Shown piece after piece: positions 17,740 to 48,308 of a DNA stretch of 64,000 nt. This DNA is from Escherichia coli. Its GTDB lineage: Bacteria; Pseudomonadota; Gammaproteobacteria; Enterobacterales; Enterobacteriaceae. Under the pieces are notes generated by a model. It saw nothing but the letters and a program-made list of their open reading frames with translations. It searched no databases and was not told the DNA's origin. Both the position numbers and the translations under genes were made by a program. How positions within the stretch are numbered: the stretch's first letter is position 1; each line of letters opens with the position of its first letter. Location of the stretch: assembly GCF_030384885.1 (NCBI RefSeq), contig NZ_CP128613.1; one strand, given 5' to 3'.

Positions 17740-18651
17740 ATGTATCAACGCTGTTTTGATAACGCCAGCGAAACGCTGTTTGTCGCCGGTAAAACGCCAC
17801 GGCTTTCACGTTTTGCATTTAGCGATGATCCAAAATGGGAGTCCGGACATCACGTTCATGACAATGAAACCGAGTTGATTTACGTCAAGAAAGGGGTAGC
17901 AAGGTTTACCATCGATTCTTCGTTATATGTCGCGCATGCCGATGACATTGTGGTGATAGAACGTGGCAGGTTGCATGCGGTGGCCTCTGACGTTAACGAT
18001 CCGGCAACGACGTGTACCTGTGCGCTGTACGGCTTTCAGTTTCAGGGGACTGAGGAAAATCAGCTACTGCAACCGCATTCTTGCCCGGTCATTGCCGCAG
18101 GGCAGGGAAAAGAAGTCATTAAAACCTTATTTAATGAGCTAAGTGTGATTTTGCCGCAAAGTAAAAATAGCCAAACATCTTCGTTATGGGACGCATTTGC
18201 CTATACGTTAGCAATTCTTTACTACGAAAACTTTAAAAATGCTTATCGTTCGGAGCAGGGGTATATTAAAAAAGATGTTCTGATAAAAGATATTCTTTTC
18301 TATCTGAATAATAATTATCTCGAAAAAATCACTTTAGAGCAGTTATCGAAAAAATTTCGTGCCAGCGTCAGTTATATCTGCCATGAATTTACCAAAGAGT
18401 ATCGTATTTCCCCTATTAACTATGTTATTCAACGGCGTATGACGGAAGCGAAATGGTCACTCACTAATACTGAATTATCACAGGCAGAGATCTCCTGGCG
18501 TGTGGGTTATGAAAATGTCGATCACTTTGCCAAACTGTTTTTGCGCCATGTCGGCTGTTCGCCCAGCGATTACCGCAGGCAATTTAAAAACTGTTTTGCG
18601 GAACAAGAAATCCTATCTGAATTTCCTCAACCAGTAAGTCTTGCCGGATAA
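17740..18651 (+). CDS. ydiP: AraC/XylS-family transcriptional regulator
   Basis: 303-aa ORF with C-terminal AraC-type HTH region; divergent from ydiQ operon. Confidence 0.9.
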   Translation: MYQRCFDNASETLFVAGKTPRLSRFAFSDDPKWESGHHVHDNETELIYVKKGVARFTIDSSLYVAHADDIVVIERGRLHAVASDVNDPATTCTCALYGFQFQGTEENQLLQPHSCPVIAAGQGKEVIKTLFNELSVILPQSKNSQTSSLWDAFAYTLAILYYENFKNAYRSEQGYIKKDVLIKDILFYLNNNYLEKITLEQLSKKFRASVSYICHEFTKEYRISPINYVIQRRMTEAKWSLTNTELSQAEISWRVGYENVDHFAKLFLRHVGCSPSDYRRQFKNCFAEQEILSEFPQPVSLAG

Positions 18652-32360: not shown

Positions 32361-32593
32361 GTTTTCTTATTTCTGAACGCTGCAATTTTTTACCTATCTC
32401 TTAAATAGTCATTTTCAATACAACTTTTTCTTTTTCATCACAGCCTTAATGCTCCTTAGATAATAATCATTATCTAACAATGAGATACCTAATTCTTAGC
32501 GTGCCTGTTAACCCACACATCAGGGTCTATGCTTATTAAAAGCAGGCAAAAAGCATGTTTTACGGTAAAGCCCCTGCGTTTGCTGGGTTGAAC

Positions 32594-32608
32594 TGATAAT
32601 CATTATCA
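32594..32608 (+). promoter_or_regulatory. Fur box in sufA promoter
   Basis: TGATAATCATTATCA, near-perfect Fur consensus core, about 45-60 nt upstream of sufA ATG. Confidence 0.75.
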
Positions 32609-41897: not shown

Positions 41898-42107
41898 ATG
41901 GGAAACCGGACAAAAGAGGATGAACTGTACCGAGAAATGTGCAGAGTTGTCGGTAAAGTTGTGCTGGAAATGCGCGATCTGGGGCAGGAACCAAAGCATA
42001 TTGTTATCGCAGGCGTATTACGTACAGCATTAGCCAATAAACGCATTCAGCGCAGTGAGCTGGAAAAGCATGCGATGGAAACCGTCATTAACGCACTGGT
42101 TAAATGA
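41898..42107 (+). CDS. fumD: Small fumarase-like protein FumD (YdhZ)
   Basis: 69-aa ORF MGNRTKEDELYREMCRVVGKVVLEMRDLGQEPKHIVIAGVLRTALANKRIQRSELEKHAMETVINALVK. Confidence 0.85.
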   Translation: MGNRTKEDELYREMCRVVGKVVLEMRDLGQEPKHIVIAGVLRTALANKRIQRSELEKHAMETVINALVK

Positions 42108-42112
42108 CCATT

Positions 42113-42139
42113 CAGGATGAGGCGGTAAGCTTCATCCTG
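42113..42139 (+). terminator. Hairpin terminator after fumD
   Basis: caggatgag-gcggtaagc-ttcatcctg followed by atattctt. Confidence 0.55.
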
Positions 42140-42347
42140 ATATTCTTAGTTCAGTTGCAGTCCAGTTAATCATTCTAAATAACAACTGCTGAAATTATAC
42201 AAATTTCGGTATGTATTTTAATTTATAGCGCTAATGTTATTTTTATTATCTGTAATGAAAGTCACAAATAATTGTCGGATCAGTTAAATTCATATCAAAT
42301 GATAATAAATATCACTTCACTTATATTTTTTTTCTTTGTGTTTTTAA

Positions 42348-42361
42348 TTGATAACGATCAA
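42348..42361 (+). promoter_or_regulatory. FNR box (TTGAT-N4-ATCAA) upstream of ydhY operon
   Basis: TTGATAACGATCAA, perfect match to FNR consensus half-sites, about 200 nt upstream of ydhY ATG in an AT-rich region. Confidence 0.8.
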
Positions 42362-42562
42362 TGTTAAGAACTCAGAATAATCACATTATTTTTTCTCCTA
42401 ACCATAAAGGATTAGTTTATCAGCGTTAAATCTTTTCTCATACACTATCGGGTTAGGGAAAATATCTGGTGTTGGGGACAGAGTCAGCAGCGTATTAGTT
42501 GAATGCTTAATATCAGGCTGCTGAATTGTCAGCACTGTGTTTGCGAAGAGGATGCGAAATAA

Positions 42563-45312
<2,750 letters not shown>

Positions 45313-45324
45313 GGAATGGGTGAG

Positions 45325-45975
45325 ATGAACCATCAGGATGTCTTGCCGTTAGCGGAAATCAGCGAAATTGACGAGGCGAAGCGGCAATGGTTGCAGGGGA
45401 TGCGCCACCCCGTTGATACGGTAATTGAAGACATCACAGAACCAGAACCTGCTGAAATCCTGGCAGAGTTCATTCGCCAGCATTCTGCGGCTGGGCAGCT
45501 GGTGGCGCGCGCCGTGTTTCTCTCGCCACCCTATTCGGTTGCAGAAGAGGAACTGTCAGTTTTGCTGGAAAACATTAAGCAGAACGGAGACTACGCGGAT
45601 ATCGCGTGTATGACGGGAAGCCAGGATGATTACTATTACTCAACGCAGGCCATGAGTGAAAACTACGCGGCGATGTCTTTGCAAGTTGTGGAGCAGGACA
45701 TTTGTCGCGCTATTGCACACGCCGTTCGTTTTGAGTGCCAGACGTATCCTCGTCCTTACAAAGTCGCCATGCTGATGCAAGCGCCATATTACTTCCAGGA
45801 AGCGCAGATTGAAGCCGCGATCGCCGCGATGGATGTTGCACCTGAATATGCCGATATACGGCAGGTGGAGTCATCGACGGCGGTGTTGTACTTGTTTAGC
45901 GAGCGATTTATGACCTATGGCAAAGCTTATGGCTTATGCGAATGGTTCGAGGTAGAGCAGTTTCAGAACCCCTGA
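45325..45975 (+). CDS. ydhW: Uncharacterised protein YdhW
   Basis: about 216-aa acidic ORF; start chosen at second in-frame ATG with better SD spacing (the ATG at 45316 is also possible). Confidence 0.8.
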   Translation: MNHQDVLPLAEISEIDEAKRQWLQGMRHPVDTVIEDITEPEPAEILAEFIRQHSAAGQLVARAVFLSPPYSVAEEELSVLLENIKQNGDYADIACMTGSQDDYYYSTQAMSENYAAMSLQVVEQDICRAIAHAVRFECQTYPRPYKVAMLMQAPYYFQEAQIEAAIAAMDVAPEYADIRQVESSTAVLYLFSERFMTYGKAYGLCEWFEVEQFQNP

Positions 45976-46038
45976 AATTTCAGGGAGATGTCATGGATAG
46001 GGTGGACATTAGCAGCCACTGCATTAGGGGATAATCAG

Positions 46039-46707
46039 ATGTCCTTCACTCGACGCAAATTTGTTCTGGGGATGGGAACAGTAATCTTTTTTACTGGTTC
46101 TGCGTCTTCTCTGTTAGCGAACACGAGGCAAGAAAAGGAAGTTCGGTATGCCATGATTCATGACGAGTCACGGTGCAATGGCTGTAATATTTGCGCCCGC
46201 GCATGCCGTAAAACTAACCACGTCCCCGCTCAGGGAAGCCGTTTATCGATAGCACACATACCGGTCACCGATAACGACAACGAAACGCAGTATCACTTTT
46301 TTCGCCAGTCATGCCAGCACTGTGAAGATGCTCCTTGCATCGACGTTTGCCCAACAGGAGCGTCATGGCGTGATATGCAGGGGATCGTGCGGGTAGAAAA
46401 ATCGCAGTGCATCGGCTGCAGTTATTGCATTGGCGCTTGCCCGTATCAGGTTCGCTACCTTAACCCTGTCACTAAAGTGGCAGATAAATGTGATTTCTGC
46501 GCTGAGTCCCGACTAGCAAAAGGCTTTCCGCCCATTTGCGTTAGCGCCTGCCCGGAACATGCATTGATCTTTGGTCGCGAAGATAGCCCAGAAATTCAAG
46601 CGTGGTTGCAAGAAAATAAATATTATCAATATCAGCTACCTGGTGCCGGGAAACCGCATCTGTATCGCCGATTCGGTCAACATTTGATTAAAAAGGAAAA
46701 TGTATGA
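46039..46707 (+). CDS. ydhX: Tat-exported 4x[4Fe-4S] ferredoxin-like subunit
   Basis: 222-aa frame with twin-arginine signal (SFTRRKFVLGMG) and four Cys clusters (CNGCNICARAC, CQHCEDAPCIDVCP, CIGCSYCIGACP, CDFC...CVSACP). Confidence 0.88.
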   Translation: MSFTRRKFVLGMGTVIFFTGSASSLLANTRQEKEVRYAMIHDESRCNGCNICARACRKTNHVPAQGSRLSIAHIPVTDNDNETQYHFFRQSCQHCEDAPCIDVCPTGASWRDMQGIVRVEKSQCIGCSYCIGACPYQVRYLNPVTKVADKCDFCAESRLAKGFPPICVSACPEHALIFGREDSPEIQAWLQENKYYQYQLPGAGKPHLYRRFGQHLIKKENV

Positions 46708-47489
46708 ACCCGTCGCAACATGCTGAACAGTTTCAGAGCCAGTTGGTGAACTATGTGCCACAGTTCACTCCCGAATTTTGGCCGGTGTGGTTGATCATTG
46801 CCGGACTATTGCTGGTTGGGATGTGGTTGGTGCTGGGGCTGCATGCCTTGCTTCGTGCTCGTGGCGTGAAGAAATCAGCCACCGATCATGGTGAGAAGAT
46901 TTATCTTTACAGCAAAGCGGTCAGATTATGGCACTGGTCGAATGCGTTACTCTTTGTATTGTTGCTGGCAAGTGGGCTGATAAATCACTTTGCGCTGGTG
47001 GGAGCAACTGCGGTTAAAAGTCTGGTTGCGGTGCATGAAGTTTGCGGATTTTTGTTACTGGCATGCTGGCTCGGCTTTGTTCTGATCAATGCCGTTGGGG
47101 GTAATGGTCACCACTATCGCATTCGTCGTCAGGGTTGGCTGGAGCGAGCGGCAAAACAAACGCGATTTTATTTGTTTGGCATTATGCAGGGGGAAGAACA
47201 TCCTTTCCCGGCAACAACACAGTCTAAATTTAATCCCTTACAGCAGGTCGCCTATGTTGGTGTCATGTATGGATTGCTGCCGTTGTTACTATTGACGGGG
47301 CTGCTGTGTCTCTATCCGCAAGCCGTGGGAGATGTGTTTCCTGGCGTAAGATACTGGTTATTTCAGGCGCATTTTGCTCTGGCATTTATAAGCCTCTTTT
47401 TTATCTTCGGTCATCTTTATCTTTGCACCACGGGGCGTACGCCACACGAAACCTTTAAAAGCATGGTCGATGGCTATCACCGGCACTAA
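46704..47489 (+). CDS. ydhU: PhsC/cytochrome-b-like integral membrane subunit
   Basis: 261-aa hydrophobic ORF with conserved His residues in TM helices; ATGA overlap with ydhX. Confidence 0.88.
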   Translation: MNPSQHAEQFQSQLVNYVPQFTPEFWPVWLIIAGLLLVGMWLVLGLHALLRARGVKKSATDHGEKIYLYSKAVRLWHWSNALLFVLLLASGLINHFALVGATAVKSLVAVHEVCGFLLLACWLGFVLINAVGGNGHHYRIRRQGWLERAAKQTRFYLFGIMQGEEHPFPATTQSKFNPLQQVAYVGVMYGLLPLLLLTGLLCLYPQAVGDVFPGVRYWLFQAHFALAFISLFFIFGHLYLCTTGRTPHETFKSMVDGYHRH

Positions 47490-47492
47490 CGA

Positions 47493-48308
47493 ATGATCAT
47501 TACACGAGCAGACCTGCGAGAATGGCGTATCGGAGCGGTGATGTATCGCTGGTTCCTGCGCCATTTCCCACGCGGCGGTAGTTATGCCGATATTCATCAT
47601 GCACTTATTGAGGAAGGATATACGGACTGGGCGGAGAGTCTGGTTGAGTATGCGTGGAAAAAATGGCTGGCGGATGAAAACTTCGCGCATCAGGAAGTTT
47701 CTTCTATGCAAAAACTGGCCATAGATCCCGGAGGAGAGAGACCATTTTGCAGTCAGTTTGCCCGCAGCGACGATCATGCTCGCATCGGCTGTTGTGAGGA
47801 TAATGCCAGAATCGCAACTGCTGGGTATGCCGCGCAAATTGCCAGTATGGGTTATAGCGTGCGGATTGGAAGTGTCGGCTTTAACAGTCACATTGGCAGC
47901 TCCGGTGAACGCGCACGGGTTGCTGTAACCGGTAATTCTTCGCGGATAAGCAGCGCTGGAGATAGTAGTCGGATTGCGAATACCGGAATGCGAGTACGCG
48001 TTTGCACATTGGGTGAACGGTGTCATGTCGCCAGTAATGGTGACCTGGTGCAAATCGCCAGCTTTGGCGCAAACGCCAGAATTGCCAACAGCGGCGACAA
48101 TGTACACATCATTGCCAGCGGTGAAGATTCAACAATAGTGAGCACGGGCGTGGTCGACTCAATTATTCTCGGGCCAGGGGGAAGCGCCGCACTGGCATAT
48201 CATGACGGCGAAAGAGTTCGCTTCGCCGTCGCCATTGAAGGTGAAAACAATATTCGAGCCGGAGTCCGCTATCGCCTTAATGAACAGCATCAGTTTGTTG
48301 AGTGCTGA
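47493..48308 (+). CDS. ydhT: Uncharacterised protein with 15 tandem nonapeptide repeats
   Basis: 271-aa ORF; residues about 90-225 form 15 consecutive 9-residue units of pattern x-[R/H/Q]-[I/V]-x-x-x-G-x-x. Confidence 0.88.
   Translation: MIITRADLREWRIGAVMYRWFLRHFPRGGSYADIHHALIEEGYTDWAESLVEYAWKKWLADENFAHQEVSSMQKLAIDPGGERPFCSQFARSDDHARIGCCEDNARIATAGYAAQIASMGYSVRIGSVGFNSHIGSSGERARVAVTGNSSRISSAGDSSRIANTGMRVRVCTLGERCHVASNGDLVQIASFGANARIANSGDNVHIIASGEDSTIVSTGVVDSIILGPGGSAALAYHDGERVRFAVAIEGENNIRAGVRYRLNEQHQFVEC

Follow-up and report, generated by a model that had tools for sequence, protein, structure and literature searches.

The perfect FNR palindrome between fumD and ydhY in Escherichia coli is very probably the published class II operator of the FNR-activated ydhY promoter

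The palindrome TTGATAACGATCAA in the spacer between fumD and ydhY is, with a very high degree of confidence, the published operator through which the oxygen sensor FNR activates the class II promoter of ydhY and, when oxygen is absent, turns on the ydhYVWXUT oxidoreductase operon of E. coli. The same 14-mer has been published as FNR-bound and activating at position -42.5 (PMC3688515), which bears out the reading of a first-pass annotation that the box controls ydhY. The site, its position and its regulators (FNR, NarL/NarP, Fur, H-NS, SlyA and sigma-S) are already known, and as a discovery the site carries little weight, since the literature plus genome-scale FNR and Fur datasets already cover it. 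A true operator was recognised from the letters alone by the first-pass annotation, with correct inferences, and the comparison of four genera provides a compact promoter picture of four elements at fixed spacing.

The DNA analysed, here called the window, is a stretch of 64,000 nucleotides (64 kb), and the locus within it is the lpp-pykF-fumD-ydhYVWXUT region of E. coli, in an orientation opposite to that in K-12. The genes and the elements that frame the spacer are:

41898 to 42107, plus strand: fumD (ydhZ) coding sequence, a 69-aa ORF annotated as fumD in K-12 and in strain 2013C-4282, upstream of ydhY and in the same orientation
42112 to 42140, plus strand: terminator-like hairpin of the intrinsic type after fumD, from a terminator scan, with a 12-pair stem and a T-rich tail; the K-12 sequence is identical
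42348 to 42361, plus strand: FNR box TTGATAACGATCAA, very probably the site from which FNR activates ydhY as a class II promoter, from sequence, K-12 identity, conservation and the published -42.5 position
42563 to 43189, plus strand: ydhY, first gene of the operon, encoding a ferredoxin-like protein (208-aa ORF; RefSeq annotation)
43210 to 48308, plus strand: ydhV, ydhW, ydhX, ydhU (phsC) and ydhT, the remaining genes of the operon, with annotation transferred from the collinear strain 2013C-4282

The fumD stop lies at 42107 and the spacer to ydhY comprises positions 42108 to 42562 (455 nt). Its GC content is 31.9% versus 49.6% for the window, the lowest-GC 455-nt stretch of which begins at 42140. 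It is the second-longest intergenic spacer of the window after ydiH-sufA (548 nt), as ranked with the annotation of the collinear, 99.8%-identical E. coli strain 2013C-4282, so that its earlier description as unusually long and AT-rich is apt. The earlier term "455-nt leader" is right in length and wrong in the word leader, as about 166 nt are expected to be co-transcribed with ydhY. The terminator-like hairpin probably ends the fumD transcript, and ydhY would therefore require a promoter of its own.

Direct reading of positions 42348 to 42361 gave a match at 10 of the 10 specified bases of TTGAT-N4-ATCAA, and 201 nt separate the box from the ydhY ATG at 42563; the perfect half-sites and the distance of about 200 nt claimed in the first-pass annotation were thus confirmed. 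When both strands were searched, the perfect palindrome was found once in the 64-kb window, while six further sites carry one half-site mismatch. One of the latter, TTGATTTACGTCAA at 17875 to 17888, lies within ydiP beside ydiQ; its reverse complement TTGACGTAAATCAA is given as an FNR-bound, H-NS-associated site in supplementary file 6 of PMC3688515.

The chance expectation for a perfect box is 0.14 per window, and at least one match was found in 12 of 100 dinucleotide-preserving shuffles of the window, so that a perfect match by itself is only modestly unlikely. These shuffles speak for reading the box as a chance palindrome in AT-rich DNA, a reading that, together with the one in which a different member of the CRP family (CRP, for instance) binds the box, we regard as extremely improbable. 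TTGAT/ATCAA are FNR-type half-sites and TGTGA/TCACA are CRP-type half-sites; the box carries the former and not the latter, which argues against CRP. What raises the box above chance is the conservation of its half-sites across loci. For this comparison 30 ydhY loci were gathered from Escherichia, Citrobacter, Leminorella and Limnobaculum, of which 29 contain the promoter region, and the conservation of sequence blocks was read from an alignment of 31 sequences from the four genera. The half-sites are perfect in 26 Escherichia- and Citrobacter-type loci and in the window (27 in total) and show one half-site mismatch (ATCAC) in the three Leminorella and Limnobaculum loci, while neighbouring bases vary, the central four being AACG, GACG, AGCG, GATG or AATG among the loci. 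Such retention of the half-sites across four genera is not what a chance palindrome would give. Neither are the FNR ChIP signals that fall on the box and the fnr-dependent expression in the published dataset (PMC3688515).

In the study of Myers et al. 2013 (PMC3688515), ydhYVWXUT is classed as activated by FNR; the operon has a ChIP peak, and its FNR site is placed at -42.5 with reference to Partridge et al. Supplementary file 6 of that study contains the bound predicted FNR site TTGATCGTTATCAA at 1752702 (U00096.2); its reverse complement is the window box TTGATAACGATCAA. Its differential-expression table holds a value of 0.25 for ydhY, assumed here to be the ratio fnr-/wt. The supplements also give a sigma-70 ChIP peak at 1752642 (U00096.2) that is stronger anaerobically (177 versus 47). 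The K-12 ydhY promoter was characterised by Partridge et al. 2008 (Microbiology 154:608), the title of which names the involvement of NarL/NarP, and literature tables give "FNR, NarL" as regulators of ydhYVWXUT. Moreover, the sigma-S holoenzyme transcribes the ydhY promoter better in vitro (PMC3141248). A literature search for the ydhY promoter turned up only its use as control DNA, and the promoter sequence is absent from PMC3141248. For the comparison of positions, coordinates of U00096.2 were converted to those of K-12 by an offset of 1976 bp, the conversion being deduced from the matching FNR site. After conversion, the FNR signals fall close to the box centre, at a distance of about 3 bp for ChIP-chip and about 20 bp for the tabulated ChIP-seq peak, and the sigma-70 peak corresponds to about window position 42421, approximately 60 bp downstream of the FNR site.

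In class II promoters the FNR site has its centre some 41.5 bp (39.5 to 42.5) 5' of the transcription start. With the published -42.5 position, the start of ydhY is expected near 42397, which would give the transcript a leader of about 166 nt. The long 5'-UTR suggested in the first-pass annotation is in line with this, as are the downstream NarL/NarP heptamers that it had suggested, for which a candidate at about +3 to +18, conserved in position in four genera, was found. The predicted elements of the core promoter are:

42384 to 42389, plus strand: candidate -10 hexamer CATTAT, 22 bp downstream of the box, in keeping with a class II promoter
42396 to 42397, plus strand: predicted transcription start, from the box centre at 42354.5 plus 41.5 to 42.5, following the published -42.5
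42399 to 42414, plus strand: putative NarL/NarP-type 7-2-7 inverted heptamers TAACCAT-AA-AGGATTA over +3 to +18, with one mismatch per heptamer to TACYYMT

The motif CACATTAT, which contains the candidate -10, is nearly invariant in Escherichia and Citrobacter. A generic sigma-70 scan made no call of the ydhY promoter, the -10 of which is weak, as is expected for an activator-dependent promoter. The same scan found a 9/12 match, ATGATA-17-TATATT, at 42299 to 42327 on the 5' side of the box, and K-12 has a perfect TATAAT at this upstream promoter position. The palindrome could thus serve another promoter, with FNR blocking this upstream one or, given the symmetry of the box and the TATAAG that 42320 to 42325 spells on the minus strand, driving a divergent transcript from that strand. 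Both variants are very improbable, however: the 4 promoter-like matches found in this AT-rich DNA do not exceed chance (3.9 expected), conservation beyond E. coli is seen for the downstream CACATTAT and not for the upstream and divergent hexamers, the minus strand holds no gene to serve, and FNR is published as an activator of ydhYVWXUT (PMC3688515).

The assignment of the box to the downstream ydhY promoter agrees with the comparison to K-12, in which the same locus and the gene order fumD-ydhY-ydhV are found and the identical box is located at 1754678 to 1754691 of NC_000913.3 (MG1655). The FNR box, the following 35 bp through the -10 region and the 7-2-7 element are identical in K-12 and the window. 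The window derives from a less common E. coli lineage and its spacer differs from that of K-12 at about 20 positions, almost all of them 5' of the FNR box and with the recognised elements untouched; the leader of about 166 nt differs at 2 positions. The differences are densest between the Fur-like box described below and the FNR box. The spacer was found in 5,423 of 5,426 complete E. coli genomes, to most of which it is only 90-95% identical, with an identity of at least 99% in 3 of the 5,423. Five diverse E. coli strains carry the same FNR half-sites, -10 and 7-2-7 element.

As a stand-alone statistic the 7-2-7 pattern was dropped, because the number of matches with at most two mismatches in the window (5 versus 2.8 expected) is at chance level and not significant. 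The element was retained as a candidate because its position is conserved and regulation by NarL/NarP is published. Among 29 related loci, 28 have it starting 37-39 bp downstream of the FNR box (1-3 mismatches); in Limnobaculum it reads TACCCCC-TT-AGAGGTA and is near consensus (one mismatch), and it is absent only from the second ydhY copy of Citrobacter sp. NCU1. The stretch from 42399 to 42414 is accordingly proposed, from its sequence and placement, as a putative NarL/NarP operator. Five Citrobacter loci (L013, L014, L018, L019 and L030) carry an insertion of about 19 nt directly after the 7-2-7 element, e.g., TACCCGTGTTTAGGGTA, which is itself a palindrome of NarL-like heptamers and possibly a further site for NarL/NarP.

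Upstream of the FNR box, two further features were distinguished:

42300 to 42314, plus strand: Fur-box-like 7-1-7 palindrome TGATAATAAATATCA, centred at about -90 and 33 bp 5' of the FNR box, with one mismatch to TGATAATNATTATCA
42153 to 42470, no strand assigned: AT-rich stretch that corresponds to the H-NS-bound "promoter island" ydhY/ydhZ (1752593_318, U00096.2) in the table of PMC3661553, matched by way of the 1976-bp offset

Matches to the Fur core TGATAAT-N-ATTATCA with at most two mismatches number 4 in the window versus 0.26 expected, and the palindrome is found at a fixed spacing of 33-35 bp upstream of the FNR box in the four genera. A Fur ChIP-seq peak at 1910890 in CFT073 was reported by Banerjee 2020, where a peak in MG1655 is reported too, and the centre of the Fur-like 15-mer in CFT073 lies 18 bp from the former. 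The same study reports activation of the ydhY operon by Fur in CFT073 (fur-/wt 0.07), which is independent of RyhB (ryhB-/wt 1); this dependence was measured in CFT073, the ydh operon of MG1655 being below RNA detection. The 15-mer at 42300 to 42314 is thus a candidate for the Fur site. The Fur-box-like element, the Fur-like box being one of the four elements (with the FNR box, the -10-like CATTAT and the 7-2-7 element) whose mutual spacing is fixed across the four genera, was absent from the first-pass annotation, as was the prior publication of the site and its regulators. This conserved spacing lends support to matching particular base pairs with the Fur ChIP peak and the NarL/NarP repression known from the literature. 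Elsewhere in the window, a perfect Fur box (TGATAATCATTATCA) is located at 32594 to 32608, 46 (about 50) bp upstream of sufA, and a copy with two mismatches lies at 32461 to 32475 in the same sufA upstream region. Together they presumably represent the known Fur site of the suf promoter.

Within 42153 to 42470 the GC content drops to 23-30%. In a SlyA study (PMC5797941), ydhYV-T is flagged as H-NS-associated in three datasets, and overexpression of SlyA is given as leading to a 2.5-fold induction of the ydh operon. Furthermore, the occupancy of FNR at ydhY reported in PMC3688515 climbs to 1.82 when hns and stpA are mutated, against 0.29 otherwise.

Taken together, the locus very probably operates as follows, with published experiments behind the binding and activation by FNR at -42.5, the involvement of NarL/NarP, the Fur ChIP peak with its positive dependence on Fur, and the association with H-NS. 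The hairpin after fumD would isolate ydhY from upstream transcription. Without oxygen, a [4Fe-4S] FNR dimer would bind TTGAT-N4-ATCAA about 42 bp upstream of the start and recruit RNA polymerase to the weak -10 CATTAT, which appears to lack a usable -35, and the resulting transcript would consist of the leader of about 166 nt and ydhYVWXUT. In the presence of nitrate or nitrite, phosphorylated NarL/NarP on the 7-2-7 element would repress transcription. Fur on the box-like element at about -90 would be needed for full expression, and H-NS would coat the AT-rich spacer and lower the occupancy of FNR. Fur may work by countering H-NS, a step that is suggested by the -90 position and the H-NS data and by analogy with ftnA.

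The promoters of dmsA and ynfE are class II FNR promoters that are repressed by NarL/NarP near the start. The ydhY promoter resembles them in the FNR site near -41.5, the NarL heptamers at or after the start and an anaerobic induction that is vetoed by nitrate; it differs from them in the upstream Fur-dependent input, the H-NS-bound AT-rich upstream region and the unusually long leader. Nandal and co-workers (2010) reportedly described a positive control of ftnA in which Fur, bound upstream, counteracts H-NS. With ftnA the ydhY promoter shares a Fur site far upstream of the core promoter, a positive and RyhB-independent dependence on Fur, and H-NS-bound AT-rich DNA. The difference lies in the anti-silencing by Fur, which at ydhY is a proposal.

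The transcribed part of the spacer was analysed for conserved blocks, coding potential and RNA structure:

42397 to 42562, plus strand: predicted ydhY 5' untranslated leader of about 166 nt, from the expected start to the ATG
42446 to 42458, plus strand: conserved leader block TATCGGGTTAGGG, found in the Escherichia and Citrobacter loci but missing from those of Leminorella and Limnobaculum
42503 to 42562, plus strand: candidate 19-codon upstream ORF MLNIRLLNCQHCVCEEDAK, in frame with ydhY and with its TAA abutting the ATG; probably not a gene
42545 to 42565, plus strand: block GAAGAGGATGCGAAATAAATG with the Shine-Dalgarno sequence AGAGGA (42547 to 42552), spacer and start codon, nearly invariant in the 31-sequence alignment

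In addition to control by FNR, the long leader could itself be regulatory, as a structured RNA switch, a translationally coupled upstream ORF or an sRNA target, so that the stretch from box to ATG would accommodate post-transcriptional control, which is considered unlikely here. Every genus keeps a leader of 134-234 nt, and the approximately 20 nt before the ydhY ATG are nearly invariant and the preceding 20 nt or so strongly conserved. Block TATCGGGTTAGGG is complementary both to the mRNA 5'-end CCUAACC (42397 to 42403) and to codons 2-5 of ydhY (AACCCGGUUGAU, 42566 to 42577), and the two pairings would be mutually exclusive, if formed. Because every candidate pair is invariant, there is no covariation evidence for these pairs; moreover, C. 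koseri carries a deletion of the middle of the leader, and Leminorella and Limnobaculum lack that part, which speaks against a regulatory leader. The upstream ORF is intact in the window and in all four other Escherichia loci, in each of which it abuts the ydhY ATG, whereas in many Citrobacter it has no start or contains an in-frame stop. As a peptide gene it was rejected on the latter grounds, and the conservation is judged to act at the nucleotide level.

Searches for structured RNA gave little in favour of a leader device. The Rfam scan of the leader at E up to 10 returned no family match beyond two at chance level (E about 7), and a riboswitch or other known RNA was rejected on this result. 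The single-sequence fold of the leader is not unusually stable (MFE z-score -1.6), and RNAalifold on 21 leaders arrived at -8.6 kcal/mol, of which the covariation term is -0.5, and at a single compensatory pair. For leader sub-blocks the energies were 0 to about -5 kcal/mol, and covariation was all but absent. A stable conserved leader structure was thus rejected as unsupported. An attenuator at 42519 to 42534 was likewise discarded, this being a weak terminator-like hairpin of 6 pairs with a poor T tail that is not kept in Citrobacter. A post-transcriptional device in the leader is therefore graded as possible but unsupported. The combined proposition that the leader carries an undescribed post-transcriptional control, by a TATCGGGTTAGGG switch or the upstream ORF, and that, separately, Fur at about -90 displaces H-NS as at ftnA, is distinctly unlikely; if true, the switch or the 19-codon cysteine-rich ORF could tune the translation of an iron-sulphur/molybdenum enzyme complex.

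Two loci depart from the common arrangement of the FNR-activated ydhY promoter. The second of the two ydhY loci in Citrobacter sp. NCU1 (L025) has kept the FNR box (TTGATAATGATCAA) without the 7-2-7 element, and its Fur-like box is degraded. In E. coli 98195 (L036; NZ_CP173582.1, 3373985 to 3374657), IS903B is inserted exactly at the FNR box. The left half-site has become TTGAG, neither the Fur-like box nor the upstream spacer is retained, other sequence having taken their place, and this locus represents a natural promoter-disruption variant.
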